A stretch of 64,000 bases of DNA, taken from positions 1 through 64,000 of the IMG/VR virus record IMGVR_UViG_3300024059_000003, one strand, 5' to 3'. Position numbers and translations under genes: made by a program. Every line of letters starts with the position of its first letter. Positions within the stretch are counted from its first letter, which is position 1. The DNA comes from an uncultured virus (IMG/VR IMGVR_UViG_3300024059_000003) (taxonomy: Duplodnaviria; Heunggongvirae; Uroviricota; Caudoviricetes). The notes under the pieces are model-generated. The model was not told where the DNA came from. It saw nothing but the letters and a program-made list of their open reading frames with translations, and ran no database searches. Below, piece after piece: positions 29,101-53,258 of the stretch.

Positions 29101-31152
29101 TTAGTATTTGTCTAACCAGCCTCCTGGTTGTGGTGTATTATAGTTCGTAAAGTTAGTTAATTGATCTAGTTCTACCAAAGACTTTCCATCTTTAGCCATA
29201 GGATACTCTGTAACAGAGTTACCATCAAACTTGTAATCTTTTCCTGGTTGCATCATCTTCTTATCACCAGTGTCAGATATTCCAAGTACAGGGTAGTTAA
29301 CACCCTTCATTGTTATATTGTTGGAGTTTATTTTAGTTATCTTTCCAGGGTATGCCCATTGTCCTCTATTATCTTCTATCACACCACCTTCTTGGAACTT
29401 ATCTAACCATCCACCATCTTCAGCTTTCTGACAACTACCCTTACTAAAAGGTGTCTTACCAGCAACTGTTTTATATCCTGGCCAGCATCTTCCACCATCT
29501 CTTTGTTGAGGTATACTACCAATAGCAATAGGTGCTGCTACAGCAGGAAGAACTTTAAACAGATTCTTAAATGCTTTTTTATCTTTTATCATTTTAAAGA
29601 ACCTTGCATCCACTGAAGTTTTACCTGCTTTACCTTCCAATATTATTTTATTTATCAAGTCATCAGAAACCTCATATTGTTTATCTGTTCCCCAAAACTT
29701 TTTAGGTATGTATTCCATTCTTAACTCATCAATTCTTCCAGCAACTTCTTGTGGTCTAGATAGATATTCTATACTTTCTGCTGTATCATCTCCTAAGTTT
29801 TTTATATTTCCATAAACTTTTTGGATATCCTTTTTGTGACCTCCTGTTAACACCTTTGTGTAATCATCTGTTACCTGAGGAACAGCAGATTGAATTGTTC
29901 TAGCATATTCAGGCTTAGTAGCTCTTGCACCAATATCCATTGCATGTTTATTTTCATGTGCAACAGTTCTTGAAAGTTTCCAATTCCTTTGGGATAAATT
30001 TGGAAATCTTGATTCAAACCTAGGAAGAGAAATAAGTGACCTATTTTCTGAAGCTCTAAAGAACCCTAGTGTGTTAGGGTTATTAGCAAAATAGCTTATA
30101 TCATCAGCACTTGTAGGTGCCATTACTTTTGTAAATCTACCTGTTGCTCCTATTTGATCTACATTCATTCTAGCGTTATTAGCATAGTTGATTTTATTAG
30201 CTCCTTCAACTACCTGATTGTTTAACCTTCTTAGTAACATTGCATCATCAGCAAGTCTTGGGAACATTTTTTGTATTGCATTTAAAGGTACACTTAGTTC
30301 ACCGCTTGGTGTAAATAGATCTGGTGCTTTTGCTTTTAATTGTTCAAGACCTCGTTTGTATAAATTTTGATTATTACGAACTTGTCTGGTTAGACTGGGA
30401 TCATTAAATTGATATGTAAAATCATCAAACCTTGTTTGAAACCCTGGAGCTTTTTGCCAAGTCTTATTAAAGTCAGAAGCTGCTTTAACACCACTTTCAT
30501 TAAAACCTCTAAACTTAGATTTAAACGGTCCTCCCTTTAGTAGTCCCATCAATTCAGTAAGATTTACTCTAGTGTCTGATAAAGGATTAGTAAGGTTAGC
30601 TATTGCACTTGTCTTTTTAGAAGGTTTTGCTGCATCAACTAACTCATCAAGTTTTTGCAACGGTACATTCTTAACTGCAGTTTTTCCTTTTGATAGCCAT
30701 GCAGGTACAATTGGTATTGCACCTAATGTATCAAAACCAGCATCAAGATATTCTCCTTCATCTAAATTACGTTTTGCAGATGTAGCATATTTAGCCCAAG
30801 CAAATGGATTAACCATATCAATTACACTATCAAATGCATTTCTGTTTTCTGCATTAATTGGTATACTATCTGGAAGGTCTTGATTACTAGCAGAATAACT
30901 AAAAGCAGTCATAGGACTTGCTAAATAATCTACCACTTTCTCATACCATGCTGGTTCTTCGTATTGAGATATAGTTGCTTGTTTTTTACCACCATCTTGA
31001 TACTTATCTAACCAACCACCGTTAATTGCTTTCACAGGCGTAGCACCTCCAGCTATAGCACCGAAGTATTTCTTCTGCTTATCAGTCAGACCTCTCCCAT
31101 GGACAGTTCCGTCTTCTAACATCTTTCTCGCTTTGCCTGGTGTTAATGCCAT
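29101..31152 (-). CDS. Putative cargo protein with intact zincin HExxH motif (683 aa)
   Basis: AHENKHA at ~29945-29960 with downstream YLSRPQEVAGR; three GGWLDK(Y/F) repeats. Confidence 0.6.
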   Translation of the reverse strand: MALTPGKARKMLEDGTVHGRGLTDKQKKYFGAIAGGATPVKAINGGWLDKYQDGGKKQATISQYEEPAWYEKVVDYLASPMTAFSYSASNQDLPDSIPINAENRNAFDSVIDMVNPFAWAKYATSAKRNLDEGEYLDAGFDTLGAIPIVPAWLSKGKTAVKNVPLQKLDELVDAAKPSKKTSAIANLTNPLSDTRVNLTELMGLLKGGPFKSKFRGFNESGVKAASDFNKTWQKAPGFQTRFDDFTYQFNDPSLTRQVRNNQNLYKRGLEQLKAKAPDLFTPSGELSVPLNAIQKMFPRLADDAMLLRRLNNQVVEGANKINYANNARMNVDQIGATGRFTKVMAPTSADDISYFANNPNTLGFFRASENRSLISLPRFESRFPNLSQRNWKLSRTVAHENKHAMDIGARATKPEYARTIQSAVPQVTDDYTKVLTGGHKKDIQKVYGNIKNLGDDTAESIEYLSRPQEVAGRIDELRMEYIPKKFWGTDKQYEVSDDLINKIILEGKAGKTSVDARFFKMIKDKKAFKNLFKVLPAVAAPIAIGSIPQQRDGGRCWPGYKTVAGKTPFSKGSCQKAEDGGWLDKFQEGGVIEDNRGQWAYPGKITKINSNNITMKGVNYPVLGISDTGDKKMMQPGKDYKFDGNSVTEYPMAKDGKSLVELDQLTNFTNYNTPQPGGWLDKY

Positions 31153-32018: not shown

Positions 32019-32020
32019 AC

Positions 32021-35000
32021 TTATATATCACAAGGTCCTATTAATGTTCCTTCTGCACCAGAACTTTCCTTTGTACAGTACTGTTGTGTCGAACCACTAG
32101 GAACTGATAAACTTTGAGGAAGTCCACTACAGTCATCATACCATACTACAATAGGTCCTGTTACTTCCCACTTATAACATGGGTATATTGATGTTGTACT
32201 TGTTGTTGTAGTGAACTCAGTAGTACTTGTTGTACTAGTAGTTATTCCACCAGCCGGACTTATACAAGATTGTTGCTGGGTTATGTTTGTGATACTATAT
32301 GCATCCCAAATCTTATCATCTCCTGACTCATTTGTGGCAGGACCAATATATATAATATCAAATGGAGACAGAGTAGTTAATTGAAACATTGCTTGATTAA
32401 CTGTGTTTCCATCACTAATAATTATAACATCACAATTACATTCATAGATTGCTCTAACAGGACCGACAAACTCAGAAGATGTAATAGTTATATCTACTTC
32501 TGGAGGTATAACTGCATTATCATAATCCCATTGGAAATAGTGGAATGTTCCTGCTCCATCATCTCCTATTGTTATTAGTTTTCCAGATGTAGTATAAAGT
32601 AAATTAGTTGTAAATATATAACCAAGAGGTAAAGCAAACTTAACTGTTGTTGCTCCTGTTGTTGTATCTATCTCTACTACATTACCTAAAGATGTCTCTA
32701 ATGCAATTAGTGTATTATCATCTTTGACTACTACTCCAGCAGTTGTAGCAAATCCAGATACAGTCACGTCAGGTTCTGGTTCTGCATCCCAGTTCGTTGT
32801 ATTTATATTCCACTTCTTAAATACAGATCCATCCCATGCATACAATGTATTTGGTCCAACGGCCAACTTACCAGAACTGTATCCAGGAATGTACAGGGTT
32901 TTCCAATAGTTCTCTCCTTCTTGTGTTCCTTGATTTTGATTTGAGACTAATGCATTCCCTAAATCATCGTTGTATATAAAACCACAACACTCGTCCAATG
33001 TTCCGGTAAATGCTGTTGTTGTAGTTGTTAATGTTGAACAATCACAATCTTGTTCTTCAAGAATTGAACCAGCGTTTACATAATATGCTGTACTATATCC
33101 ATCAGATGCTCTCGTATACCACCCATCAGAAACAAATGTACAATCACCATCAGTTCCCATATACGTAATTGTAGTTATTCCAAATTCAGTATCACTACTT
33201 TGTGTATACTGGAAAGGAAAATCTATGGCACCTATTTCACTAGAAGGATCAGGTTGACCATCAAAATCAACCAGTGCAGCATTTTTTAAACTTGCTGCTA
33301 CAGCACATGCATTTGCAGAACTATCTTTTCCTAATATAGGTGATCCACCTTTAATCATATAACCCTCAGTAAATAGATCTGTACCTAACCCATCAGGTCT
33401 GTTACATATTGTTGTAGTAGTAGGACTAGGAACAGTAATATATCCTACACCATCTATGTTACAATTTATTTCTTCTAATATTGATATATCAAGATCACAA
33501 TCAGGAACATATCCTGTAGTAGTTGTAGTAGTAAATAAAGGATCAGATGAAGTTGTGGTAGTAGTTGTTATAAGTTCTTCAGGTTCTACCTCTCCAAACC
33601 ATCCCTCCAGCTGTGGAGTCTCTTCCCCTATTTCAGATCTATCAGGAGTTTCTAACACTGCTGTAAATTGTGTACAACAGTTATTTATACCAGAATAGTA
33701 AAAGTTGTTTTCACCAATGTAGAAATTAGGTAGATAGGAATGAAAAGATATCCAACTTCTAGTACTAAAGTCAAAAGACATAGTCCAAGATTTGTTACAG
33801 AAATACTCTCTATCAAATAAGTATACTTCTTGTTCTTGTTCTGTTTCTCCTACCGTTACATAAAACTTCTTATTTACAGAATCATACTTTACATCATCGT
33901 TAATAGGAATATAGTCTAACTTAGTAATAATTACTCTATCAAACCTATTATCATATACACCGTGTAATCCAATGCCATTAAAATGATTGTCTGTATAAAC
34001 ATCTGGGAAGTATTCTAGAATCTCAAAAGGTAAATGACTTGTCATAAATCTATTTACACCTGATCCAAACTTAGTCATGTCTATAACTTTTGACCCAGCC
34101 ATTAAGAATATCTGACCTCTTTTTGCATCTGCAGTAACTGCTCCGTATGGAACTTTTAGTAAGAACTTATTTTGAGAACCTACATATCCCAAATCTGTCT
34201 CTGCAAAATCTATAGGAGGTGCTCCATCAAACAATCTAGGATTACCTATATATGCTGCTTGAGGATTACTGGTATCAATAGTTAGTAACTTGTTATATAG
34301 TAAAGCTTTATTTTCAAACCTTGCCAATACAGCCTTATCCATCATTCCATCTAGAGATGTTAGATTACCGTAGTTTTGTGGGAAGTCATGGTAAGAAAGA
34401 GCTCTATATACTAACCAGTTGTTTACTCTATTATCCGCACTGTCCCCTTGTGTATCTGAATAAATTGCTCTGAATGGAAAGAATGTATAACATTCAGCTA
34501 TCCAATCTGGAGGCAGTTGACTAAATACATTTTCTTTGTTCTGTTTAGAGAATGTTACATTATAGTAATACGTATTATCTTGAGCAATTGGTACATTTGT
34601 TTCTTGTAACCAGTCATCAGGAATACCTGAACTTACATGAGGCCAGAAGTCTCCTTCTTTTGTATTAAATGCTTGCCTTAAGTCTGTATTATATACACTC
34701 TCACAATAGAAATTAGGAATACCATATGCCCATAGATACATATATCCATTATAAAATGATCTGTAAGTTCCTGCTATGGGGTTGTCTGAACCTGAAGTGT
34801 AAACAGAAGGATCACTAGGACAGTCTAAATTGTGAGCCTTAGTAGAGATAAGGTTGAACATGTTTTGAGGAGCATTATTACCTGAAGTTACTTGATAATT
34901 ATCTAATATAGATCTTGCCGAATGCCAGTATTTAGGATAAGCAACATTACCTAACTCATCAAAGAATATATCTGAATCATCTGGTGCTTCCACTCTATTA

Positions 35001-38000
35001 TCTATAAAGAATGGTAGTTTGGTTTTAAAAGCAAATCTAGATATAAATATGTCTCCACCAAATATTGTATCTGTTCCTGAAGCTGTAACAAGTTTTTGAT
35101 AACCAGTGTCAATTCTTTGAAATGAGTTTAACTGACCCCATTGATTAGGAATAATATTCTTCATAGAAGCATAGTAGGAAACAACTTTTGTACCTTGCTC
35201 TTTTTCAGGAGTATCACATGCTCCAGACTCTCCTATGTTAAACCTTGAATATTCTATTATACTTGGTTCACCGTCTGTACCTATTAAACTATTTGTATTT
35301 TGTGGTAGAGGTAATGCTAATATATTATCATCAATCTTAGTATCAATAAATACAGAAGATTCTCTGTTCCAGTTATTTATAGGCGACTGGTTATTATTAA
35401 AAGATTGTACACCTGGTATAAGGTATCTTGTAAGTTCTATTTCTCTTTGTTTGATACCACCTTTCGTATTATTGTTGATAGGAAAATGATAATCATAGTT
35501 TGCTCTTGAGTTGAAAGACATTGCATAATTCCTTCTTGTAATACCATTTATATATATAGTAAGATAGGATTGGTATACTGTAAACATTATACCAGCATTA
35601 AATCCTGAACCCATAGAAGCCACTCTCTCAGCACTGTTTAACGCATCTTCTTGAGCTTCTTTACTTAGAAGTTTGTACTTAGCATTGTCTTTAACTTCTA
35701 CAAAGTGAGCCTTTCCTGCTCCAAACATTACACTTTCTAACTTAAGTACGCTACCTAGAAAAGGTTGACCAAATGACGTATCAGGAGAGTTGAATATTTG
35801 TTTAGATAAAATATCTTTTACTTCTTCATAGTCTGAATCATCTAATGGAGTAATAGGAATATCTCTGTTACATCTTAAACAAGATCTTCTGCTCCATCTA
35901 CTGTCAGTACCATTCAAGTCGCCACCACCATTGTTATTAATATTTGTAGCAGGAGTAAAAGTATTTTTTGAATTTGTAGGTGGAGGAAAGTTTGTAATAC
36001 TATCAATCGATGGTAGAGGATTTGTAGGTTGCCCAAAAGCAGGGGCTGGCCAAGGTGTAAGTTCTTCTGGGTTTTCTGTTTTTATACATGAGTCACAAGC
36101 TGTACCAGCACTATCAGTTTGACAAGGATAATTAGGATCAAAACTCCCAGGAGGATATTCGATTATTGGATCACTATAATTAAACTCATCAGTTGAATCT
36201 GGTAACGGTTCTCCAAAACAATTACCTGCTCTTATTGCATTTAAATCAATTCTAGGTTTCTCACAACAACCTCCTGTATCTGTAATGCCTGGTTTATTAA
36301 TATGACCACTTCCACTTATAGTGGTAGTTCCGCCTATTGGAGGACTAAGTTCTGGATCAATATTAGTAATAACAGTACAAGTTTCTCTACCAAACCAACC
36401 AGTGGCATTAAGAAACCTTTTGTTGTAAACTGTTCCGTCAAAATTAAAATTATTAAATGGATTTTGCCATTCGATTGCCCACCCAGACAATATACCAAAG
36501 AGCCCCCTTCCATGATCCCCTCGCCACACATCAAAGTCTGCTGGTCCTATAGTCATTACTCCCTTTAGTGCAACTGGTCTAGTAAGAGAACACACTTCTA
36601 CAATACAATTAGGCTGGATTTTTCTTTGTGTTGGTCTACCGTTGTCAATACTTACATACTGAAACACACCTTCATCTTCCTGTACAGAAATCTCTATGTT
36701 AAACCCTGGAAAGATTTGTCTTGTATCTTGATCTGAATAATATATTAACCATGGTTTAGAATCAATATTCCAAGCATTGTTGTTTTCCTGTAAAAAAGAG
36801 TCTTCTCCAGATACTTGATTATATGGATAGTTAGGATAGTAGTACTCTTGATCTTGTCTAGAATATTTACCTACATTTCTAAGAATACCTTTTGCTATTA
36901 CTGATTTGTTTGTACCACGGTCCCCTCTTACTATTTTAAATGCTACAATATCATCTTTCTGTTCTTGAGTAAGCTTAGAAGCTGCTATTAGTCCTGTTAT
37001 TTGAGTATTGTTAATCTTAACTCCTATAGGATAGATAGCATCAGAGTCTTGCATCGTGGGTACAATACTAGTACCTTCATAAACAATCTGTGGATTTTCT
37101 ACAATAGCACTTACTAATACATCTGGAAACTTATGATGTCGTATAGGTGTATCTGCAAGGCTTCCCCACAACTCAGTATTACATGGATACTTTTCAGTAG
37201 ATTCCCAGTATGCAAAGTTTCCGTATTCAAAAGGTCCTTTATAATTAGCATCTCCATTATACTCAGGTGAAAATCCTAAGTTTGTAGCATTGTTATATAT
37301 CTTCCAATAAGGACTATAACCAATACCACTTTCAAAGTAATCAGGTTCTCCAATAAAGTCATCATTGGTATTAGCAACATCCGGTTGAGGGTTTAGATTA
37401 AGTGGGCCTGGTATGTGAAATGAGTCTGTCTGTTTTCCATTTCTTAAAAGAAATACTATTTCAAATGCATACACTTCATCACGCATGTATCCACGATAAT
37501 TAGTAGCATTCAATTCATCACTATAGTCTTCTCCAGGTGGGAGTCTATGTGTTTCCCATTGTAATGTTATTTGACTAGCAATATTCTGATAATTAATTCT
37601 ATCTACAGAAGCTAAGTCACTCCATATCAGTGTGTCTTGTGCAGAAGTTATATCCTTGGCTACATCATAATATGGATACTTCTCAAAAATATCTGCAATA
37701 GATAATTGTATAGGATTTGCATCTGCACCAGTATATGTAATTATCTGTTGATCTTCAGTAATGTTATATGTACCTACTAACTCTACAGAGGTTATATCAT
37801 TAATAGTTTTTATTACTGCTAAATTGAAGTAGTTATATTGTCCTGATAAGTCCAGGTTTGATACTCTTACTTCTATTGATTTACCTACTGGATAGTTAAA
37901 GTTTACTGTTGTGTTTAACGGATCAGCAATAGGTGTAGGGTTAGTAACTGAATAGTAAGAAGTAAGATCGCTACCAGCTGCATCTGAATACTGTACAGCA

Positions 38001-38683: not shown

Positions 38684-38693
38684 ATGCTATTTG

Positions 38694-39710: not shown

Positions 39711-39713
39711 AAC

Positions 39714-40193: not shown

Positions 40194-40203
40194 ATATAAT
40201 TTA

Positions 40204-42424: not shown

Positions 42425-42429
42425 TATAT

Positions 42430-42491: not shown

Positions 42492-42492
42492 T

Positions 42493-43164
42493 TTATTCTA
42501 TCTCAACATCACTTCCACAACATGCGTCATAGATCCATGAAAACTCAAAGTCTACTCCAGACGATCCTACCCACTCAAGATCTTCAATAACACATGGGTT
42601 TATTAATGTATTCCCTGATATCTCGTAGTTGCGTATTGATAATGTACCTTGATTATCGTTTCCATTATTTTGTGTGTTTATCATTTGTACAGTGTTTCTT
42701 AGAGTTATTATATCTGGATCAAAAAAGAACAACTGCATGTTGCTCAAGGGACAAGGAAAGTCTGGTTCAGTTATCACTAACGGTGTATTGCTAGCAATAA
42801 ATATCGATCCTACTTGAGCATCTTGATTTAGATCTAAATTCCCTATTAAGCTCCCATTTAGAAATACATCAAAATTGTCATCCCTGGATGCGTTTTCATT
42901 ACAAACCTGAAAGACAGTGACATTATTTGGACAATTTGGAGCTGCGTCTAGTTCTTTATCTATATAAGTATTACAGTCAGGACTATTAGATATAATTCTA
43001 ACTACAGCAGTTCCAAAAGGAACGTTATATGAAACAAATCCTGCAAGTAGTTGATTACTTGTTACATCTATTTCAAAAGCTTCAGTAAAACCATCAACCT
43101 GAGAAAACAAGTTAAAAGGTCCAGCATCTGCTCCTATGTTACTAGCTTGTATTAGTATTGCCAT
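42493..43164 (-). CDS. 'GPF' N-terminal domain protein plus beta-rich domain (223 aa)
   Basis: GADAGPFNLFSQVDGFTEAFE...VPFGTAVVRI shared domain. Confidence 0.7.
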   Translation of the reverse strand: MAILIQASNIGADAGPFNLFSQVDGFTEAFEIDVTSNQLLAGFVSYNVPFGTAVVRIISNSPDCNTYIDKELDAAPNCPNNVTVFQVCNENASRDDNFDVFLNGSLIGNLDLNQDAQVGSIFIASNTPLVITEPDFPCPLSNMQLFFFDPDIITLRNTVQMINTQNNGNDNQGTLSIRNYEISGNTLINPCVIEDLEWVGSSGVDFEFSWIYDACCGSDVEIE

Positions 43165-43175
43165 TTTATATTTTT

Positions 43176-43727
43176 TTAGGATACAGAAGGACTACAAAGA
43201 GTAGTACAACATAAAACTTCATATCCATTTAAAGCTATCTGAACTGCTGCTACACTTGTGTTAGTTGTACTCGGTCCTATTTTATACCACCCTGCATCCA
43301 ATGCTAATAGACTTGCTGTTGCTGGGTCTGGATCATCATATAAAAAAGACCCAACAGGTGGAATATAATTAAAACTATCACCATTGTGCCAGTACTCAGT
43401 TACCGGTGTTGTAGATATATCTGAACATGCATCTGTAGCATTATTATGAGGTGCTGGAGCACCAAAAAGTCCAAATCCAGATGTATACTGTGAAACAATT
43501 GATGCTTCAACATAATTATCACAGTTAGCATTATTATTTTTTATTCTCACAATAGTAGTTCCAGTAGGAACAAGACTTGTAGATATGTTATAACCTAATG
43601 TACTTGTTAGAATAGTTATAGAAACATTCGTAGCAAAGGGCGTTGTATAAAAATTTGCATTTGAATATAGATCAACTGGTCCTGAACAACTGCCTGCGGA
43701 TTCTAGTTTTATTGTTAGTGTTGCCAT
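43176..43727 (-). CDS. 'GPF' N-terminal domain protein plus small beta domain
   Basis: AGSCSGPVDLYSNANFYTTPF; probable start MATLTIK at 43727. Confidence 0.7.
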   Translation of the reverse strand: MATLTIKLESAGSCSGPVDLYSNANFYTTPFATNVSITILTSTLGYNISTSLVPTGTTIVRIKNNNANCDNYVEASIVSQYTSGFGLFGAPAPHNNATDACSDISTTPVTEYWHNGDSFNYIPPVGSFLYDDPDPATASLLALDAGWYKIGPSTTNTSVAAVQIALNGYEVLCCTTLCSPSVS

Positions 43728-43741
43728 TTTATAATTTTGTT

Positions 43742-44884
43742 TTATGGATCTGGACAATCCTCAACGTTAGTAATACGTCCATTTGTATCAATTTTTATAA
43801 GCCAACTTCCTGGATTGGGTGTAGATAGAGACAGTTGAAACCTGTACCATTTGTTGTCTCCGTTAAATGTTTGAGATGCTGGAAATATTACATCATATGT
43901 AAAATCATTTATTTGTGGTTCAACAAGTGATCCATTTTTCCATAGGAATGCAGCAAGGTCAGCACTACATAAACCAATATTTAGATTTGAACTACTAGTT
44001 ATTGATCTTATACCAGCTGCAAGAGATGGACTAGATTTTGTAGTAGTAGTTGTCGTAAGTGGAATTTGAGTTGTTGTAGTACCAGTAAGTGTTATAGTAG
44101 GATTATTTAAGGAACAATCACATGTAGTAGTAGTAGTTGTTGTTGAAGAAGAGCTGGTACTGGTTGTAGTGCTAGTAGAACTAGTAGAACTAGTAGTTGT
44201 TGTTGTAACTTCTTTATAAGTGTCAGCTATAAAGGAGAAGTCTACATCAACCCCTGCTCCAGTATAATTAGGACTTAGGGCAGTTACAAAATTATCAGTA
44301 CAGAAAGTACATATATCCTGTCCTTGATATAGTATTCCGTCTTTTTGAATTGTATTGATAAAATTGTAAACTCCTGTTCTGTTACTATCTATTGTAGCAG
44401 AAACTACATCTCCTGGTAAGATTTGAATAGTTCCACTTTGTGAAGATGCATTACCTGTAATAGTTGCATCTACAACATTATTTCCATTAACATCTATTTT
44501 TAAGTTGCTGCTCTGTGGTTCTGGTGCAATTAAAGAATTTGGAGTATTAGTTATAAGCTCCCAGTTAAGTCTGTTAGGAGGCTGTTGTGTTGTAGTGGTT
44601 GATGTAGATGTTGAAGTACTTGTAGTAGTTGACGTACTAGAACTACTTGTTGTAGTTGTTGTAGGACAATTAGTTGGTAGGTCAATACAATTATCACATG
44701 TACCAACAGAGCAGACTCTTATAATAGTTGCTCCTGTAGGAAGTTCAATAACATATCCATTAGTTAAAGTTAAAGCAGGAACTTGTGTTTGAAATGGAGT
44801 AGTATATCCATTTGCATCTGAGTATAAATCAAAAGGTCCAGCAGAGCCTCCTGGGGGTATGGTTATGTTTATTTGTATCAACAT
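43742..44884 (-). CDS. 'GPF' domain modular protein with Thr/Ser linkers (380 aa)
   Basis: GSAGPFDLYSDANGYTTPF; three Thr/Ser tracts separating domains shared with neighbouring genes. Confidence 0.72.
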   Translation of the reverse strand: MLIQINITIPPGGSAGPFDLYSDANGYTTPFQTQVPALTLTNGYVIELPTGATIIRVCSVGTCDNCIDLPTNCPTTTTTSSSSTSTTTSTSTSTSTTTTQQPPNRLNWELITNTPNSLIAPEPQSSNLKIDVNGNNVVDATITGNASSQSGTIQILPGDVVSATIDSNRTGVYNFINTIQKDGILYQGQDICTFCTDNFVTALSPNYTGAGVDVDFSFIADTYKEVTTTTTSSTSSTSTTTSTSSSSTTTTTTTCDCSLNNPTITLTGTTTTQIPLTTTTTTKSSPSLAAGIRSITSSSNLNIGLCSADLAAFLWKNGSLVEPQINDFTYDVIFPASQTFNGDNKWYRFQLSLSTPNPGSWLIKIDTNGRITNVEDCPDP

Positions 44885-44887
44885 ATC

Positions 44888-45139
44888 TTATGGTGTTGTT
44901 GTTGTTGTGGTAGTTGTAGTTTGTTCTAATACAATATCAAAACTATTTTCACATAATGAATCTGACGTTACTCTTATTATAGTAGTAAAATCAGGAACTA
45001 CAGTACTAGTATAGCCAGCTAATAAATTAACTTTAGTTACACCAGTTTCAAAAGCAGCAGTGAACCCATCTACATCTGAGAACAGATCGAAGGGTCCAGT
45101 ATTGTTTCCTGCAGTTGTTAGTTTAATAAATGCTTCCAT
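44888..45139 (-). CDS. Stand-alone 'GPF' domain with terminal poly-Thr tail (83 aa)
   Basis: AGNNTGPFDLFSDVDGFTAAFE; ends in a Thr run plus Pro; probable start at 45139 via TAATG coupling. Confidence 0.7.
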   Translation of the reverse strand: MEAFIKLTTAGNNTGPFDLFSDVDGFTAAFETGVTKVNLLAGYTSTVVPDFTTIIRVTSDSLCENSFDIVLEQTTTTTTTTTP

Positions 45140-45450
45140 TATGATCCGCAACAAGTATTTAGTGTGTTATTTATATTTATAACTTGCTCTTTTATAGCAG
45201 AAATATCTGATGTATTAGTTGCTTGTTGAGTCTTCAATATACAAAGAAGTTCGTCAATTTTAGACAAAGCAACGTTTAAATCATCACAAGGTTCTACATT
45301 AGAACAAGGTAATATTGGTCCATTGTATGTAATAGATTTTGAATAATGTATTCCAGTTTGACATGGATCATTACTTACAGAAGTAGAACAACCACAAGTA
45401 GTGTTCACTGCTATATTTGTACAACAAGGATTAGTGGGTAAGTATGCCAT
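45139..45450 (-). CDS. Cys-rich anchor-domain / coiled-coil protein (103 aa)
   Basis: ITYNGPILPC..V.PCDDL..AL.KID..LC domain followed by a heptad segment. Confidence 0.65.
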   Translation of the reverse strand: MAYLPTNPCCTNIAVNTTCGCSTSVSNDPCQTGIHYSKSITYNGPILPCSNVEPCDDLNVALSKIDELLCILKTQQATNTSDISAIKEQVININNTLNTCCGS

Positions 45451-45461
45451 TGTTTTTAGTA

Positions 45462-46601
45462 TTAAGGTATGTAAATTATATAATATGATCCAATTCCAGG
45501 TTGATAATTATTATGTGGTAATCCTCCACCAGTAGGATTTATTGTAACAGTTGTAGCTACAGTTTGACTAACATCAGTAGTTTTTCCTACAGTAGATGTA
45601 GTACTTGTTCCTCTAAGTGCATATCCTAAGTTACCACCTGTGCCTTTTGCCTGGCGAATATAGTTACTGCTTGTAGGAGGATCTGTTTCATTTGAACTTC
45701 CCATACTTGCAACAAGGTGGCTGTGAGAAGCTGGACTAAGTGAAGCTGCTACAGTATTAGTGTGTGTATGTGAAGGTATTTGTGCTGTTGTTAATACAAC
45801 TTGATTTGTTCCAGTAAGGTCATTTAGGTTATATGTAGGATTTCCACTAACAGACGGATCAACTATGTTATCCATACTTTGACCTGGCATATCAGTAGCT
45901 CCAACAGCTACTCTTCCTCTCATATCTGGTGTACCATTGTTTCCATTACATAGAAATATTCTATCCCAAATACCTATTCCTGCACCTGATGCATCAAATG
46001 GTGTTAAGTCTCCAAAGTATGGCTGTGCAGAAAATGGAACCATTCGATTACTAATAAGCTGTTGCTGAGGATTAGTGTTTAAATAGTTTTCTATATACGT
46101 ATTAATATCAACAATTTGTACGTAGTTGTTTGTAACATCAGTAATAAAAGTGTTCAGTGACTGCTCAACTTCACACAACTTATTTATAGTTTGTTGTAAT
46201 ACATCTGATGTGCTTGTAGTATCTGTTACTCCAGATACACAGCCTACATCATAGTTTACAACTCTTGATCCTGAACCACCTTCTATCTCACTTACTTCTT
46301 CCTGTAATTTACAGATAGTTTTGATTATACCTACTAGGTAGTTATTTAAAGTTAATGGGTTACAGTCATCTAGATTAGCCTGCACTGCAGGGCATATATC
46401 TGATGGGGGAACTACAGGTGTTATACCTGTTCCGTCTAGTGTAGATCCTAAAAAGGTAATAAGAGCTTGCTCCACAAATGATAGGGAGTCTCCATTCTTT
46501 ATTCCTAGTATAGGAACGTCTACACCTGTATATTTAACGCACTTGTCTGAAGTAATTTCAGTACATCCGTTATAACAATTTGAGCAATTTTGTGTTGACA
46601 T
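45462..46601 (-). CDS. Tail fibre with phage tail-collar domain (379 aa)
   Basis: FLCNGNNGTPDMRGRVAVG, LTTAQIPSHTH, HSH and TGGGLPHNNYQP are hallmarks of collar/short-fibre domains; N-terminal anchor domain. Confidence 0.8.
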   Translation of the reverse strand: MSTQNCSNCYNGCTEITSDKCVKYTGVDVPILGIKNGDSLSFVEQALITFLGSTLDGTGITPVVPPSDICPAVQANLDDCNPLTLNNYLVGIIKTICKLQEEVSEIEGGSGSRVVNYDVGCVSGVTDTTSTSDVLQQTINKLCEVEQSLNTFITDVTNNYVQIVDINTYIENYLNTNPQQQLISNRMVPFSAQPYFGDLTPFDASGAGIGIWDRIFLCNGNNGTPDMRGRVAVGATDMPGQSMDNIVDPSVSGNPTYNLNDLTGTNQVVLTTAQIPSHTHTNTVAASLSPASHSHLVASMGSSNETDPPTSSNYIRQAKGTGGNLGYALRGTSTTSTVGKTTDVSQTVATTVTINPTGGGLPHNNYQPGIGSYYIIYIP

Positions 46602-46625
46602 AATTTTATTTATTTGTTTATCACA

Positions 46626-49600
46626 CTATGGTGATGTTTGTGTTGCGTTTAGAGAAATAGCACCTGTTCCTGTTACTGTAAAGTTTCCAGCTACTGGACC
46701 TATTACTGTTTGAGCAGCTCCAGTAGCGACATCACTAAAACTAGTAAATCCACTAACTTGAAGACCACTTACTGTTAAAGTGTCATTTTGTCCTGGGTTA
46801 AGTGATTTATAAGTTGCTAGTAGGTCATAATTCTCTCCGTTTACTAAAGTAAAGTTGTAAGTTCCATTACTGCTTGGATCAGCAAGATAAGTCTCCGAAA
46901 ACTGGCCGTTTTCACCGTCAAGAGTTACAAAGTTAGTTCCGTCTCCAGTGTCATCAAAGTCTATTATAAGACTTGCAGGTGTAGTTGCAGTACTAATAGT
47001 ATCATAATTCCAAACACTATTACTTACACCTGTTTGAGTCCAGTTGTTAAATACATATGTATAGTTACTAGATGCAGATACAAGACTTTTTTGAATTGTA
47101 GGTGTAGTAGGTGCTACACTAGTAAATAGTTTGTGTTCAACAAAAAGAGTATCGCTTGTTAAATTTTCAGTTGTCATTGTTGCACTAATAACGTCACCTA
47201 TTGCTGTCATTATTGTGCCACCGTCTGATGTATTAGTTTTGTTTATAACAGAATTTACAACTGCTACGCTATTAACTAATATCTTAAGATTCGCACTCTC
47301 AAATAGACCTGCTCCACTTGGATTACTCTTACCACTAAACACCCAATTAAATGCATACTGTTTAGGATCAGCAGTGGTAGTTGTTGTAGTTGTTGGTACT
47401 GCAGTGGTGGTAGTTGTTGTTGTCGTAGGTGCTACAGTGGTGGTAGTTGTAGTTGTTGGTGCTACAGTAGTTGTTGTAGTTGTCGTGGGTGCTACAGTTG
47501 TTGTAGTAGTTGTTGTTGGAGCAACAGTTGTAGTTGTTGTTGTTGTAGGTGCTACAGTTGTAGTTGTTGTTGTTGTTGGTGTTGTACAATCTCCAAATGC
47601 AGTAACTTTATAACTATCTCCAGTTGTATGATCAAAGGTAGAAAGTATTGATGATAAGTCATTACCATTTGCATCTATCTTTGAAAATTGGAATGCATTT
47701 GTAGATGATAACGGACCTGAAGAAGCGTTACTGCTAACTTTACCATAAGGAACAGTAACTGCTCCAACTCCAACATCAACAAGTTGATACACTGCTGTAT
47801 AGTCTACTCCTCCTATATTAAATACTACATCATAGTTGGTATTTGGAACTTGAGACCAGTTGGTATAACTTGTTGTGTTTGTAGTTGGTCCAACGAAAGA
47901 TGATCGAGCATATAGAGAGGGGGTATTCACACCTACAGGACTTGGTGGGTCTGTATACCAGAAGCTATTATCTGTAGTAGTTAAATAGTCAAACTCTAGA
48001 CATCCAACTAATGGTGCAAGAGTTGTTGTTGTAGTTGTAGTAGGTGTTACCGTTGTGGTTGTAGTTGTTGTTGGTGCCACTGTAGTTGTAGTAGTGGTAG
48101 TAGGAGCAACAGTTGTTGTAGTTGTAGTTGTTGGTGTTGTACCAGTTGCTGCAACAGCACAACCAGTACCAGATCCTGAGTTACTATATCCTGAAGGAAC
48201 AATAAATGCAAGCGTATAAGAAACTGTTCCAGCAATATATACAGTTGTAATACCCCCACTATAATTGTAACTAGTTATAGCTAGATTGAGTCCATCATAT
48301 ACAACACTTCCATTCAGTGGATCTCCTACAATTCCATCAGGTAAAGATACTGTTAGTAGTGGATCTGTACAAAGGAAAACAGGTAAGGTTGTGGTTGTTG
48401 TAGTTGTAGGAGCTACAGTAGTTGTTGTAGTTGTAGTAGTAGGAGCTACAGTTGTGGTTGTAGTAGTAGTAGGTGCTACAGTAGTTGTGGTTGTAGTAGT
48501 TGTATTTTGATCATCTGGACATAGATAAAAATCAAGAATACAACCTGCTAACCTAGCTCCTATATGTGTAAATGTTAGTTCATTAATTCTATCACCATTG
48601 TTTTTAGGGAATATATTAAATAAACCACGATTTCCTATATCTCCTGCATAAAGCCTTCCTTTAAATATCACACTACCATCTGTCTCATTAGAAACTATAA
48701 AACTATCAGCATTTTCTCTACACACCTGTATAAATTCTATATTAAGATCTACGTCAGCTGTTACTCTTACTGTTTCATATATTCCTGGATTAGGATAATA
48801 CCCTATACCAGTACAGAAAAATGCTATAGACGATATTGAGTTATCAAATGACATTGTGGATGAAGAACAAGATCCACTACCTAATGCATAACGCCCTTTA
48901 TTATTATATTGCCTATTGCTGAAACCAATCAAGTCACAAGTTCCAATTCCTTCATTATTGGGAATAAGTTCTGGAGCTGGACCTGGAACATACGTAGCAC
49001 CACAATCACCACTTGATGATGTCAAAGTTAAGATAGTCCCATTACTTAATGTTTTAGTTCCATTTCCAGTACTAATTCCTGGGAATCCCTCTGGAGCATC
49101 AAAGTCATAAGGTTGGCTACATCCACTAGAAGGAGTTAAAGTAGTACTAGTAGTAGTTGTAGTATTACCACCACAATTAGCTTCTAGTGAACCTGTAAAT
49201 CCTACTTGCCAGTACGCTTCACTTTCACAATATATTATTTTCTGGTCACTTTGTCCATCTATAGTTATATACTCAATTGTATCTGGATCTACTAGTGGAC
49301 CAGGAGTAATAAACTGCTGTATACCCATTTGTTCTGCAACCATATCTATTCTACAGGCATAACCATATAGATAACAACCAGCTACCACTTGAGCTCCACC
49401 AGCATAACATAGTCCTATTATCTTGATAGTTCCATTTATATCTGCGAGGAGGAATGATCCTGAATCTCCTGAATATATAGGATTACAACAATATTCTGTT
49501 GTACTCGCATTATCAGGATCTTCTTGAGGAGGTTTAATAAATCTAATAGCATCAGTAAACTTACAATTTACACTAGTTGCTTGTGAACTAGGATAAGCTA

Positions 49601-50474
49601 TATTTTCAAGCGTAGCACCTATTGATTGAATTAACATAGGACAATCTGGTACAATACCTTTAGGTCCAGTAGTTCTTCCAGTACTATATACACGAGGGTT
49701 TGTAGCTAATAGATTATCTATTTCTAATGTAGAAGCAAACGGTGGTGGGTTACTACCTAGTATAGACTCTAGTCCTACTTGATTCCATGCAATTGTTGGA
49801 TTCCATCTTGTCGGATCAATAGAAATTATAGCTGCATCTACCTGATTAAGTAAACCTGTAGACTTTGCATGAATAGGAACATACTGTAAACTTACACCAC
49901 AGTTATAACTTGCAGGTTTGGATGCACTTCCACCTTCTCCTTGTTGGTATACATAATCTACTGGACTATATTCATTTACAAGAGCTCCAGTAACACTTCT
50001 ATCAGATGTATAAAATGCATCTTGAATAGTAACGTGATTATTTGTTAAACCAACTGAACAGCCTGTTTCTGAATGTATAACTACACCTCCAAGAGTACCT
50101 ACACTAGTTCCATTATTTCTACTAGAAAAAGAAATACCACCTTGTAAATGTTGAAAGAACTGTCTGTTTGCTAGTGAAGTGTTATTTGTTTGTCCACAAG
50201 TTGTAGAACACGTACCTATAACTTCATGCTTCGCTATTTCTATTACATCTGTTTTTATACTTTTTCCAGATACTATAACACGTGATGGAATATGTTCATT
50301 TATTGAAATCTCAGAAAGAGGCTTCTTTTTTTCTACAGCTATAACTATAGCAAAGTCACCTGTCCACGTTCCATTAACAACTTTTCTTCCCCAAGCAACA
50401 CTAGTTACATTAGGAAGTTGCTGAGACAACTCTAATATTCTATCTTTTATTTCTTGTGTTAATAGTCCTTTCAT
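46626..50474 (-). CDS. Trypsin-like (S1/Nal1-type) serine protease fused to Thr-linked beta domains (1282 aa)
   Basis: GTLG, LTNNHV, VDAA, GRTTG and GDSGS in order; TTTTTTTVAP repeats between later domains. Confidence 0.8.
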   Translation of the reverse strand: MKGLLTQEIKDRILELSQQLPNVTSVAWGRKVVNGTWTGDFAIVIAVEKKKPLSEISINEHIPSRVIVSGKSIKTDVIEIAKHEVIGTCSTTCGQTNNTSLANRQFFQHLQGGISFSSRNNGTSVGTLGGVVIHSETGCSVGLTNNHVTIQDAFYTSDRSVTGALVNEYSPVDYVYQQGEGGSASKPASYNCGVSLQYVPIHAKSTGLLNQVDAAIISIDPTRWNPTIAWNQVGLESILGSNPPPFASTLEIDNLLATNPRVYSTGRTTGPKGIVPDCPMLIQSIGATLENIAYPSSQATSVNCKFTDAIRFIKPPQEDPDNASTTEYCCNPIYSGDSGSFLLADINGTIKIIGLCYAGGAQVVAGCYLYGYACRIDMVAEQMGIQQFITPGPLVDPDTIEYITIDGQSDQKIIYCESEAYWQVGFTGSLEANCGGNTTTTTSTTLTPSSGCSQPYDFDAPEGFPGISTGNGTKTLSNGTILTLTSSSGDCGATYVPGPAPELIPNNEGIGTCDLIGFSNRQYNNKGRYALGSGSCSSSTMSFDNSISSIAFFCTGIGYYPNPGIYETVRVTADVDLNIEFIQVCRENADSFIVSNETDGSVIFKGRLYAGDIGNRGLFNIFPKNNGDRINELTFTHIGARLAGCILDFYLCPDDQNTTTTTTTTVAPTTTTTTTVAPTTTTTTTTVAPTTTTTTTLPVFLCTDPLLTVSLPDGIVGDPLNGSVVYDGLNLAITSYNYSGGITTVYIAGTVSYTLAFIVPSGYSNSGSGTGCAVAATGTTPTTTTTTTVAPTTTTTTTVAPTTTTTTTVTPTTTTTTTLAPLVGCLEFDYLTTTDNSFWYTDPPSPVGVNTPSLYARSSFVGPTTNTTSYTNWSQVPNTNYDVVFNIGGVDYTAVYQLVDVGVGAVTVPYGKVSSNASSGPLSSTNAFQFSKIDANGNDLSSILSTFDHTTGDSYKVTAFGDCTTPTTTTTTTVAPTTTTTTTVAPTTTTTTTVAPTTTTTTTVAPTTTTTTTVAPTTTTTTTTAVPTTTTTTTADPKQYAFNWVFSGKSNPSGAGLFESANLKILVNSVAVVNSVINKTNTSDGGTIMTAIGDVISATMTTENLTSDTLFVEHKLFTSVAPTTPTIQKSLVSASSNYTYVFNNWTQTGVSNSVWNYDTISTATTPASLIIDFDDTGDGTNFVTLDGENGQFSETYLADPSSNGTYNFTLVNGENYDLLATYKSLNPGQNDTLTVSGLQVSGFTSFSDVATGAAQTVIGPVAGNFTVTGTGAISLNATQTSP
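47370..48505 (-). repeat. Three arrays of ~30-nt repeats encoding TTTTTTTVAP
   Basis: Arrays at ~47370-47585, ~48020-48140 and ~48390-48505. Confidence 0.9.
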
Positions 50475-50483
50475 ATCTATGTG

Positions 50484-53258
50484 TTATGCTGGTACTGACC
50501 CTGCACTAAATTTAGTAAATATTGTTCTTACACCAGGCGTAGATGTAGTAGTGGTAGTTGTTGTTGATATATCAGGATCTGTTGTAGTAGTGGTAGTTGT
50601 ACCAACTATAGCAAATCCATCATTTGTTCTACATAATGGTAAACTTCCTGAACTTCCACCAAAGTATTCAGATTCGTTTGCTACTTCTTCCCAAACATGT
50701 GTTTGTAGATTAACTCTATATAATCTATAAAATCTAAAAACTCCTTCTGTATTACTACCTAAAGTTACATATAAATAATCATCAACTACAGCCATGTCTC
50801 CACCACTGTTCCAATTACCAACTGGTCCTGGAATCTCTACTTCTAGATTACCTGTGTCATAATCAAACTGAGCAAGTATATATGGTTGAGTTCCATAATC
50901 AGATTTGACTGCTATAAATTTATTTGGTGTTCCATCTTCTTTAAGGGTAACCACATGTTCACCAGAACCATTAAATGGTTCAGGTATAAGGAATTTAAGT
51001 GTAACTGCTAATGTTGTAGATCCCTCTACAAATTCAGCTTCAAACACTTGTTGACCTCCTCCATCAAAGGAAGAGATACCGTACGATAGTACCATTAAGT
51101 TGTCATTAACCGTACTTACTCCAAAGTAAGTAGGAGGAAATATATTAGGTAACTCACTTTGATTTATAGTATAAAGTATACCCTCCCATGTAAAGTTTGA
51201 AGGTGTACCACTTGGTAATGTGGTATCATAACTCCATCTTGTAAATTGTGAAATTGCATCTCCTTCTGCATCTTTATTGTTAACTTGACCAATAAAATAA
51301 TTATTAGTAATATCTGAATTAGGTAGTTGGAAATAGCTACCTCCTGGAAGAGCAATTTCCTCTATGGTATTTGTTACAATATTTTGTGAATAAACTCTAT
51401 TATAGCTTCCCTTCAAATTCTCAGGGGCACATATTCCATCACTACAGCTCTCTGTAACGTTACGAGTAAATATTCTTGAGCAACTTAAAGGAGGAGTGAC
51501 ACAACCAAGCAGAATTGGTCCCCCAGTTGGTGCATTACCGGATATAGTTATAACAGTAAAGTTGGTAGGAGTTGTTACAATAAACTCTCCATCACCTTCT
51601 GTATTGTAATCTGGCACACCTCCACCTATTCTATTTCCTTGTACTTGTACATTACATCCATTACTTATTGATATAGAAGGTGTTCCTGCATTTGTAGTAA
51701 TTTCATAAACGTCCCCAGCACTAAAGTCAGGTTGAGTATTAAGTACAGCAGCTCTAATAGGAAGATTATTAATAGGACTTTCAAAAGTTAGAGTAATATT
51801 AAAATCATTACCTTGAACAGTTTTTAACTTATTAGTTGCAGCTGGATTAGATAATCCACTACATCCGCCATTAGGCACACCTCCAACTGGATCTCCTGGT
51901 AGTAATGCTAAGTAGTTATCGTCAGCAGTAGCTGTAACCTGAATTCCCTGATATGTAAAAGTAACAGGCCCAATGTAGAAGAGGTTATTTCTATCATCTC
52001 GTTCAGTTAGTGCAGGTATCCAAGTAGCCTCACAATCAGGATCTGTTAATTTAATACCAACATTTGCACAACCAGTTGATGTATGTATCCAAACACTATC
52101 GTCAGCCACTGTAGTTTCTAATGTAGCATTATATGGTGCTGTTTGACTTATGTTATATACTTCAAGTGTTTCTGGTTGAATTACTTGTATTAATCCATTT
52201 ACACCCCATACAGGCATAGCTTTAGTTGAACCAGTCCATGTAGATGTAAATTCAGGAACACCAGAATTCTGTAAGTTGATTATAGGAGTGAGAGGATTTG
52301 GCGACCAACTACCAGAAGAAGGTAAACCTGGATATTGTTTAATTCGATTTGAGGCATTGAAATCACTTTGGTTTTCATAATATCTACTAGAAAGAATAAC
52401 ATCACCATCATTAGTAATAAACATACCTGTAAGCTCTGTTGTGTGTCCAGAGGCATTACCAAAGCTAACAGTGGCTTCATCACTATTATTAGATTCAGTT
52501 AATTCAATATCTCCAACTGTAGAAATGTCCCATTCGTAAACACCCATAGCAACATTTCCATTAAATCTATCACTAAACCCTACAAGTAATGTGTTATTAT
52601 CAGAGGTTGTAGCTATTGTAGATATTTTAGTTCCCCATATACTTTTGTAATTAAGTGAACTTACAGCAATCGTTATTTCTCTAACATAAGATAAAGTTGG
52701 TACAGGACCAGATATAACTATGTCCCACTCTCTAATGTATGCCACTGTATTATCAGTTGTAACACTAGCCAACCATAACTTATCTTCTGTAGAGCAGATA
52801 GGTCTGTTGATTCCTACAGTAGTTGTAAAGTCATTAGGTACAAGCACAGGACTTGAGGAATTAGTATTAAAGTCATATACAGCTATTTCTCCAGGGTTAC
52901 CTCCATAAGTTGACCATGTACATGGTGAGAATGCTGGATAATTAGTACTTGTTGTAGTACTTGTTGATGATGACGTGGTTGTTGTTGTTGTAACATCACA
53001 AAGAATAGATCCAGAAAAATCGCAATTTGGTATAGCACAAGAATAAATATCTGTTGTATTAGGTGTACACAATGCACCTAAGTCCAACAGTCTAACAGTT
53101 ATAGTTCCATCAGGGGCTAATGATGTTTCATACCCAGACAATAGATCCGCTTTAGTCACACCTGTCTCAAATGGAGTAGTAAACCCATCTACGTTCGAGT
53201 ATAGATCAAAAGGACCTGTATCTGCACCTGCAAAACTTAATGTTATTATTATTGTCAT
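50484..53258 (-). CDS. 'GPF' domain modular protein with two propeller-like regions and Thr linkers (924 aa)
   Basis: AGADTGPFDLYSNVDGFTTPFE; beta-rich regions resembling the muzzle extension. Confidence 0.7.
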   Translation of the reverse strand: MTIIITLSFAGADTGPFDLYSNVDGFTTPFETGVTKADLLSGYETSLAPDGTITVRLLDLGALCTPNTTDIYSCAIPNCDFSGSILCDVTTTTTTSSSTSTTTSTNYPAFSPCTWSTYGGNPGEIAVYDFNTNSSSPVLVPNDFTTTVGINRPICSTEDKLWLASVTTDNTVAYIREWDIVISGPVPTLSYVREITIAVSSLNYKSIWGTKISTIATTSDNNTLLVGFSDRFNGNVAMGVYEWDISTVGDIELTESNNSDEATVSFGNASGHTTELTGMFITNDGDVILSSRYYENQSDFNASNRIKQYPGLPSSGSWSPNPLTPIINLQNSGVPEFTSTWTGSTKAMPVWGVNGLIQVIQPETLEVYNISQTAPYNATLETTVADDSVWIHTSTGCANVGIKLTDPDCEATWIPALTERDDRNNLFYIGPVTFTYQGIQVTATADDNYLALLPGDPVGGVPNGGCSGLSNPAATNKLKTVQGNDFNITLTFESPINNLPIRAAVLNTQPDFSAGDVYEITTNAGTPSISISNGCNVQVQGNRIGGGVPDYNTEGDGEFIVTTPTNFTVITISGNAPTGGPILLGCVTPPLSCSRIFTRNVTESCSDGICAPENLKGSYNRVYSQNIVTNTIEEIALPGGSYFQLPNSDITNNYFIGQVNNKDAEGDAISQFTRWSYDTTLPSGTPSNFTWEGILYTINQSELPNIFPPTYFGVSTVNDNLMVLSYGISSFDGGGQQVFEAEFVEGSTTLAVTLKFLIPEPFNGSGEHVVTLKEDGTPNKFIAVKSDYGTQPYILAQFDYDTGNLEVEIPGPVGNWNSGGDMAVVDDYLYVTLGSNTEGVFRFYRLYRVNLQTHVWEEVANESEYFGGSSGSLPLCRTNDGFAIVGTTTTTTTDPDISTTTTTTTSTPGVRTIFTKFSAGSVPA

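Follow-up and report, generated by a model that had tools for sequence, protein, structure and literature searches.

An unnamed N-terminal domain family in virion-region proteins of Crassvirales-like phages, a candidate common anchor for exchangeable surface appendages

Six genes in a 64,000-nucleotide stretch of DNA from an uncultured virus (IMG/VR record IMGVR_UViG_3300024059_000003) encode proteins that begin with the same domain of about 70 amino acids (aa), which we refer to as the GPF domain. The stretch, hereafter the window, makes up the initial 64 kb of this record, which is 76,268 bases long and has an estimated completeness of 67%. Its long open reading frames (ORFs) are all on the minus strand, to which the coordinates given below refer. 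The six GPF genes lie on this one strand among the genes for the capsid protein (Crass_capsid, 58897-60462; Pfam E 4e-31), the portal (61926-63893; PHROGs match), tail ring protein 2 (40204..40932; Pfam CrAss_Ring_2, E 3e-20), tail ring protein 1 (38694..39710; Pfam CrAss_Ring_1, E 7e-8), a muzzle protein of 2220 aa (32021..38683; Pfam crAss_MUZ at the N-terminus, E 3e-31, with further matches to phrog_37948 and phrog_15100) and a tail-fibre-like protein, fibre379 (45462..46601; phrog_8763, E 1e-19, and phrog_8469, E 9e-18, both tail or tail fibre). Judged by these matches, the window is a Crassvirales-like virion module, and the original prediction, made from the letters of the window, was right to place the six ORFs in a virion region, since they sit among crassvirus tail and fibre genes. 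The sole match of the capsid protein in a cultured phage collection was 25.6% identical, and no close cultured phage was found there.

The proteins differ greatly in what follows the shared domain. GPF1 (50484..53258, 924 aa) carries it in residues 1-73 (53040-53258). A Cys-rich stretch and a Thr/Ser linker come next, then a large region that is probably a beta-propeller and, near the C-terminus, a second poly-Thr stretch; a Kelch_6 match in residues 816-860 fell below the cutoff. GPF2 (44888..45139, 83 aa from the ATG at 45139) consists of the domain (residues 1-70, 44930-45139) and a 13-aa poly-Thr tail without a payload, and its single Cys is C63. In GPF3 (43742..44884, 380 aa; domain in residues 1-70, 44675-44884), Thr/Ser linkers and at least two more domains follow. 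GPF4 (43176..43727, 183 aa from the ATG at 43727; residues 1-76, 43500-43727) has one Cys-containing C-terminal domain and no poly-Thr linker, and GPF5 (42493..43164, 223 aa; residues 1-71, 42952-43164) likewise has one C-terminal domain. The gene for GPF6 (31152..32018, 288 aa) directly follows the muzzle gene, and its diverged domain (residues 1-68, 31815-32018) stands ahead of a highly conserved core tail fragment. The original prediction had listed six minus-strand ORFs beginning with a common motif; all begin with it at the starts listed, their N-termini align, and the domain is followed, much as had been described, by a Thr linker only (83 aa), by one domain (183 and 223 aa), or by chains of domains (380 and 924 aa). 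No seventh copy was found, whether in the window or elsewhere in the 76,268-base record.

The relationship among the copies was assessed by a leave-one-out test in which a hidden Markov model (HMM) was built without the tested copy and run against the 748 stop-to-stop frames of the window. The significance of the alignment, on which the original prediction had staked its claim, was clear for five copies, with E values of 2.5e-24 (GPF1), 5e-26 (GPF2), 1.1e-18 (GPF3), 1.2e-17 (GPF4), and 2.2e-21 (GPF5), while the best unrelated frame had an E value of at least 0.05. These five strong copies are homologous, and chance is excluded. GPF6 reached only E values of 0.0003 to 0.04 with the leave-one-out models, always as the best nonmember and in the N-terminal register. 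An alignment of GPF6 orthologues matched the five copies with an hhalign probability of 96.2% (E 2.1e-9, 60 columns), and a 94-row profile of the domain recovered GPF6 orthologues in five related genomes with E values of 1e-12 to 1e-18. The copy is corroborated by a 287-aa protein of Virus NIOZ-UU157 in the BFVD database, which superposes on the structural model of the GPF domain described below with a TM score of 0.85 and a root mean square deviation (rmsd) of 1.6 Å. By these profile comparisons GPF6 is a true but diverged copy. It had been singled out in advance as the most diverged of the six, in agreement with an N-terminal identity to GPF1 of 22%, compared with 46, 36, 43, and 44% for GPF2 to GPF5.

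Beyond the window, the HMM search that had been proposed as a check showed that the domain is widespread. At E<=1e-3, a profile of the five copies matched 1,609 representatives, of which 1,243 also pass E<=1e-10; each stands for a cluster formed at 50% identity. At least 613 confirmed stretches in IMG/VR carry the domain. Domain statistics were taken from the best 150 representatives and locus statistics from 80 loci kept from the IMG/VR stretches. Of the 150 representatives, 147 have a domain that begins somewhere in residues 1-5 (the others at 11, 23, and 24). In the 80 loci, all 129 hits are at the 5' end of their frame; these loci contain one hit in 48 cases, two in 15, and three in 17. 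Tandem copies were seen neither in the window nor in the 80 loci. Searches of Pfam-A 2025, PHROGs v4, and NCBIfam 20 gave no significant match to the domain (the best PHROGs E value on isolated GPF domains was 0.066, over 12 residues), a profile search of the PDB with the 94-row alignment gave no relevant match at E<=10, and no paper with a title or abstract on the domain turned up in full-text literature searches. The earlier impression that the domain belongs to no described family was therefore upheld for Pfam, PHROGs, NCBIfam, and the PDB sequence profile search, and on this evidence GPF is a real, large, and unnamed domain family. Orthologues of individual copies are likewise unnamed: those of GPF5 (220-222 aa) occur in public metagenome sources, and in the ESM Atlas GPF5 matched only unnamed viral clusters (scores 0.79-0.81) while the GPF1 tail matched none.

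A scan of GTDB found the domain at only eight loci, in metagenome-assembled bins of mutually inconsistent taxa. Because seven of the eight show phage tail-gene synteny, these loci are phage contigs mis-binned into cellular genomes; a cellular origin was rejected, and the family is in effect viral. The seven contigs (L087-L093) lie in bins labelled both bacterial and archaeal and carry the tail-gene synteny of the phage lineage.

The part of the protein behind the domain is the part that varies. A typical GPF protein is small (median, 182 aa), with a median tail of 112 aa, and a run of at least four Thr/Ser residues occurs within 40 residues of the domain end in 121 of the 150 representatives. 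The 146 tails of at least 40 aa fell into 68 BLAST clusters, and a Pfam match at E<=1e-4 was obtained for only 3 of the 150 representatives (Ice_binding, NHL/SBBP beta-propeller, and DUF6801). Among 208 pairs whose N-domains are at least 80% identical, the tails of 192 share no detectable similarity, a proportion that is inflated because the representatives had been preclustered at 50% identity, which removes pairs alike in both parts; the individual examples, with N-domain identities of up to 95.7%, stand. Comparison with two related genomes gave a finer view of this pattern. Relative to the close genome G001, the N-domains of GPF1 to GPF5 are 92-100% and their tails 88-93% identical. Relative to G002, the N-domain and tail are 75% and 45% identical in GPF1 and 79% and 29% identical in GPF3, and the tails of GPF4 and GPF5 are missing, domain-only frames of 76 and 82 aa being present instead. 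The suggestion that the domain is an interchangeable module carried by different payloads thus gained support, in that it is always N-terminal, precedes many unrelated tails, and is better conserved than the tails in the canonical copies, as one would expect of a shared attachment module whose payloads can be exchanged. The payload-less form is maintained as well. Frames orthologous to GPF2, 77-102 aa in length, are present in related loci, and the gene shows purifying selection (13 sequences; median dN/dS 0.27 over the 76 usable of 78 pairs, an approximate value, since dS was often above 1 or saturated).

GPF2 and GPF3 are in the same frame, one TAA and one codon apart, an arrangement that is kept in 8 of 14 related loci (L011-L033). 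Read-through or recoding between the two (44882-44890) was considered and rejected. There is no sign of it, because TAA is the separating stop codon not only in the window but in each of the 14 loci, six of which have a second TAA as well.

The distribution of cysteines separates the domain from the tails. Exactly one Cys is present in the domain of 143 of the 150 representatives, and it occupies one of the three columns that are invariant in the 94-row alignment, where the diverged GPF6 type is represented too. Tails contain an even number of Cys in 117 of the 150 (binomial p 3e-12), or in 104 of the 137 with any Cys (p 9e-10), and the total is odd in 114 of the 150. In the window, the totals for GPF1 to GPF6 are 15, 1, 10, 6, 7, and 3, four of the six being odd. 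The simplest reading of these counts would be that the payload tails are internally disulfide bonded, and hence outside the cell, and that the anchor Cys is free; the tails would be extracellular because even Cys counts fit internal disulfide bonds. A free anchor Cys may then be available to bond with another molecule, either a partner or a second copy.

An AlphaFold model computed with only the five window copies (pLDDT 52) was discarded for one based on the 94-row alignment (pLDDT 91, pTM 0.78). The latter, which covers 73 residues (44921-45139), is predicted to be a seven-stranded sandwich with one six-residue helix. Foldseek found no PDB match to it at E<=1e-3. With VIA-align, the best PDB match had a Z score of 6.1, and FN3/Ig-like domains and the C-terminal domains (CTDs) of type IX secretion substrates scored 4.8-5.9; FN3 domains superposed with Z scores of 5.0-5.8 and rmsd values of 2.4-2.9 Å over 65-70 of the 73 residues, and Pfam fn3 did not match the GPF domain. 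We are confident in assigning the model to the small FN3/Ig-like beta-sandwiches, as a fold class only and not as a statement of homology. The fold is silent on function because Z values of this size are typical of common arrangements. Structure searches, another of the checks proposed, accordingly yielded family members in BFVD and no match in the PDB at that Foldseek threshold. The only clear BFVD matches are five unannotated proteins of Virus NIOZ-UU157, with lengths of 417, 287, 939, 77, and 77 aa (A0A7S9XH99, A0A7S9SU37, A0A7S9STY0, A0A7S9SU94, and A0A7S9XFL2; TM scores of 0.85-0.92 and 29-49% identity to the model). These five are true GPF family members, and as a set they mirror the large, muzzle-fragment, and domain-only forms of the window. 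Papers that mention Virus NIOZ-UU157 are, to go by their titles and abstracts, not apparently about these proteins.

The GPF genes occur on one syntenic backbone, in three slots, in all 80 loci. The first half of this backbone reads major capsid protein, p322, p243, p379a, p188, p581 (its N-terminal module), a large GPF gene, p1282, fibre379, and p103; the second half continues with one to three GPF genes (four in the window), p413, ring 2, p174, ring 1, the muzzle, a GPF gene, a GPF6-like gene, p683, and p1274. Slot A is thus the position between p581 and p1282, where orthologues of GPF1 (918-1437 aa) are found in at least 22 loci, slot B lies between fibre379-p103 and p413, and the third slot lies between the muzzle and the GPF6-like gene. 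The upstream neighbour of the 95 runs of GPF genes is p103 in 39 cases, p581 in 22, and the muzzle in 8, and the downstream neighbour is p413 in 32, p1282 in 26, and p683 in 6; elsewhere the runs adjoin a contig end or an unlabelled frame. Five related genomes, four of which are at least 98% complete and three of which have terminal repeats, contain 2, 2, 2, 6, and 6 copies, and the copy number among the four that are at least 98% complete is 2 to 6. All five contain a GPF6-like frame of 291-305 aa with the diverged domain, and the smallest set among them pairs a single canonical GPF protein with the GPF6-like protein.

The original prediction had read the 288-aa ORF as the domain joined to a fragment of the core tail, and its orthologues agree with this. 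The tail of the GPF6 orthologue at L064:6627-7490 matches positions 1588-1776 of the 1,783 positions of the muzzle-like phrog_15100, its last ~190, and the 2220-aa muzzle ORF matches the N-terminal part of the same family. Because the two ORFs match opposite ends of phrog_15100, the muzzle appears to be split in this lineage, with a C-terminal fragment that begins with a GPF-type domain. A canonical GPF gene is found exactly at the muzzle split in 10 of the 80 loci (the region is 31152-38683 in the window and 543-7490 in L064).

The comparative evidence from these sequences gives good support to a putative role as a shared anchor. We lean, with a confidence slightly better than even, towards the view that the GPF domain is the common module by which exchangeable surface appendages are attached to the virion, possibly one that is locked by a disulfide bond. 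In this scheme, the module would fix appendage proteins to a common site on the particle. The tail, in the fibre or muzzle region, is favoured over the capsid as that site because the slots lie beside fibre, ring, and muzzle genes and because the domain also occurs on a muzzle fragment. The invariant sole Cys may form a disulfide to a partner or to a second GPF copy, and the Thr-rich linker would serve as a flexible stalk that holds out an exchangeable, disulfide-rich C-terminal domain, which probably makes contact with the host surface. Payloads would then be exchanged by recombination at the linker, and the anchor would be retained. The incorporation of the proteins into virions, the binding and its site, the disulfide, and the adhesive role of the payloads are all matters that we infer.

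A number of observations weigh against the shared attachment module. The Cys argument is statistical, and even totals occur in 36 of the 150 representatives as well as in GPF3 and GPF4. The fold is generic, with Z scores in the range of common arrangements, and the proportion of domain pairs with unrelated tails is overstated by the clustering. In the comparison with G002, GPF6 shows the reverse of the expected pattern, its N-domain being 50% and its tail 72% identical. Since there are conserved domain-only genes, the domain must have a role even where no payload is attached. A tblastn search of the cultured phages in INPHARED with one representative (P0008) gave no match. Finally, a mirror-tree screen of the neighbouring proteins did not single out a partner: 11 neighbours were considered, p103 was left unscored with only 9 loci, and the other 10, with 16-38 loci each, gave Spearman r values of 0.01-0.52, with none outstanding. 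Single-sequence PDB searches with p413, p581, and p188 found nothing relevant and no mapping to the hub of the crassvirus PhiCrAss001, and profile searches of the PDB with p413, p188, and p379a likewise found nothing relevant. The candidacy of p413 as the docking hub was rejected, as it has metallophosphoesterase motifs, is absent beside GPF in L089 and L091, and had an r value of 0.01.

Anchoring of appendages by the N-terminus has a structurally described precedent in the same virus order. In the structural account of PhiCrAss001, the head fibres gp21 (residues 1-38) and gp29 (residues 1-58) and the tail fibre gp22 (residues 1-26) are held N-terminally, the gp22 N-terminus sitting on the THA2-THB hub, and gp29, of 118 aa, is a dimer on the hexons that binds via residues 1-58 and has an Ig-like end (Bayfield et al. 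2023, PMC10172136). Section 8 of that account describes hub-hub, hub-ring, and ring 1-ring 2 disulfides, and its authors expected uncharacterised fibre analogues in other crassviruses (PMC10172136). Like the scheme proposed here, PhiCrAss001 combines N-terminal holding, flexible or Ig-like C-termini, and disulfide-stabilised hubs. The GPF domain differs from the PhiCrAss001 anchors in being, as modelled, a complete folded sandwich of 70 aa and not a short arm, and in being common to up to six proteins per genome. The PDB profile search detected no sequence relation between those anchors and GPF, and no crassvirus chain was among the listed Foldseek and VIA-align matches, although short extended anchors may not be comparable in such searches.

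Other accounts of the same data differ in where the GPF proteins would go or in which part of them does the work. The same anchor logic could operate at the capsid, with GPF proteins as head fibres or decoration seated in hexon pockets and payloads that adhere weakly to surfaces or cells. We regard this site as improbable on balance and still as a serious rival to the tail location. The hexon-binding gp29 of PhiCrAss001 is a direct precedent, and other crassviruses may have uncharacterised analogues, by the account cited above (PMC10172136); the GPF proteins are moreover small, appear monomeric, and have flexible linkers, in contrast to classical trimeric fibres, of which fibre379 is an example, and an unpaired Cys would suit a disulfide dimer. 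However, the GPF genes are separated by 3.7-27 kb from the capsid gene, which is upstream of them, and have fibre-like, ring, and muzzle genes as their surroundings. One slot immediately follows the muzzle, the universal diverged copy is on a muzzle fragment, and the PDB profile search gave no sequence match to gp21 or gp29. It is also conceivable that the N-domain is itself the working part or a spacer, as an Ig- or FN3-like adhesion or stalk domain, and that the C-terminal parts attach to the virion or act independently. The fold (Z 5-6.1 over 62-70 aligned residues) would suit this, and purifying selection on domain-only genes implies that the domain does something alone. Ig-like spacers are usually internal and repeated, and neither the strict residue-1 position of GPF nor the lack of tandem copies in the window and the 80 loci is what a spacer would lead one to expect. 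The tails are also the fast-changing, exchanged part, and a single site on the virion cannot accommodate 68 unrelated tail clusters. We consider this account unlikely.

Still less likely, and in our view very much so, is that the N-domain is a signal for assembly, folding, or sorting, for instance of ejected cargo or as an intramolecular chaperone, and not a permanent dock. An N-terminal position is typical of targeting signals, and crassviruses package many cargo proteins, as the PhiCrAss001 account indicates (PMC10172136). The cargo of PhiCrAss001, as characterised there, is predicted to be alpha-helical and in part RNA polymerase related, whereas GPF tails are small and Cys-rich. Furthermore, poly-Thr linkers and even tail cysteines point to exposed, oxidised proteins, and a folded 70-residue sandwich modelled at pLDDT 91 is more than a signal peptide. 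That the similarity reflects chance or low-complexity composition, or that the small ORFs are not genes, has a probability close to nil. Thr/Ser-rich linkers do raise uncorrected BLAST scores; a match between the GPF3 tail and p1282 obtained without composition correction fell to an E value of 0.16 with it, and a payload shared by these two proteins was rejected on that ground. But the leave-one-out E values of 1e-17 to 5e-26 were obtained on the nonrepetitive domain itself, 1,243 representatives match at E<=1e-10, the fold model is confident, and the 83-aa ORF has a dN/dS of 0.27, and by HMM E values, family size, fold model, and dN/dS this account is refuted.

A bolder form of the shared attachment module, which we consider doubtful, is a covalent plug-in display in which a disulfide would join the lone Cys to a fixed acceptor on the tip of the tail, so that any payload placed behind GPF and a Thr linker would be locked on. 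The acceptor could be the universal GPF6-like muzzle fragment, whose diverged domain has the same Cys. If this were true, it would amount to a natural, portable dockerin-like (or SpyTag-like) system with which abundant aquatic crassviruses re-tool host recognition.

The principle of a conserved N-terminal anchor and a variable receptor-binding end has long been established for phage fibres and spikes. Examples are the N-domain of T7 gp17 and the branched tailspike sets of CBA120 and G7C, with their T4 gp10-like docking domains. In modular phage receptor-binding proteins, several proteins per genome may share the attachment logic, with recombination at the domain boundary. Because the principle is established, the GPF system is less new in kind than the original prediction implied. 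GPF proteins resemble the T7, CBA120, and G7C proteins in their conserved N-terminus and variable C-terminus, and the neighbouring fibre379, whose tail-fibre-like region by PHROGs is C-terminal, has a Gp10_C match below the cutoff (Pfam E 0.0028). They differ in that those are trimeric fibres or spikes, whereas GPF is modelled as a single-chain sandwich with a poly-Thr linker and small Cys-rich domains, and no homology of GPF to such anchors was seen in Pfam or PHROGs. GPF is distinct from these known anchors in its unrelated sandwich, invariant Cys, poly-Thr stalks, up to six users per genome, payload-less members, and split-muzzle copy.

The analogy to dockerin and cohesin that had been drawn holds for the logic, a small module borne on many payloads as in cellulosomes, and fails for family and fold. 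Dockerin is a helical, calcium-binding module, whereas GPF is predicted to be all beta apart from its six-residue helix and had no Pfam dockerin or cohesin match at E<=1; a scaffold with repeated acceptor modules was not found. The type IX secretion CTDs of RemZ, NucA, RemA, and RgpB are similar to GPF in size and in their seven-stranded sandwich (Z 4.8-5.9 over 63-65 residues). They are C-terminal on Sec-exported proteins, whereas GPF is strictly N-terminal on phage proteins, and there is no sequence match between them. The resemblance is curious given the presumed Bacteroidota hosts; its Z scores are tied with those of generic FN3 domains, and it probably reflects a common fold only.

Crassviruses are among the most abundant phages. 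To our knowledge, host recognition is unknown for most of them, and their fibre proteins are largely unannotated. The GPF domain marks a family of probable surface appendages, with more than 1,600 cluster representatives, in an aquatic lineage that is uncultured. It provides a simple sequence handle to their exchangeable host-contact domains, most of which (147 of the 150) match nothing in Pfam at E<=1e-4. Once defined, the anchor and its partner would explain how two to six appendage types are mounted on one chassis, and the domain could offer a small natural display scaffold. The gain lies in the new family and in the disulfide hypothesis, the conserved anchor and variable tip being an established principle.

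Several neighbours of the GPF genes are built along similar lines. The upstream neighbour of GPF1, p581 (53283..55028), has a conserved N-terminal module of 85 aa, helical and Cys-rich, then Thr/Ser linkers and a payload; the design is the same and the anchor is unrelated to GPF. Its N-terminal ~85 aa correspond to a stand-alone protein of ~89 aa in many relatives, and here and in near relatives the module with long Thr/Ser linkers and a payload makes up proteins of ~500-960 aa. On the other side of GPF1, p1282 (46626..50474; phrog_20754, E 7e-12) is a multidomain, appendage-like protein with a protease-like N-terminal region and at least four long, near-identical "TTTTTTTVAP" linker arrays between its domains; it has no GPF domain. 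Directly upstream of GPF2, and adjoining 39 of the 95 GPF runs, is the gene for p103 (45139..45450), a small Cys-rich protein (10 Cys) whose stop codon overlaps the GPF2 start by one base. Homologues of p103 head proteins of 323-768 aa in relatives (44-50% identity over at least 70% of p103), and by this sequence evidence p103 would be a third shared N-terminal module in the gene block; its similarity to the N-terminus of fibre379, which forms the upstream edge of slot B, was not significant. At the downstream edge of slot B, directly before ring 2, p413 (41080..42321; phrog_704, E 2e-53) has conserved columns of the metallophosphoesterase type (DxH, GNHD, HG, and GDxHH) and possibly an N-terminal helix-turn-helix. 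It carries the PHROGs label "DNA repair exonuclease", had no Pfam or PDB sequence match, and is absent from this position in L089 and L091. Near the capsid gene, p379a (55807-56946), for which no family or PDB sequence match was found, may be an auxiliary capsid or ring protein, an assignment that we regard as questionable. It ranks with the best-conserved proteins in the block (77% mean column identity over 21 sequences) and ends in a Cys followed by a poly-Thr tail.

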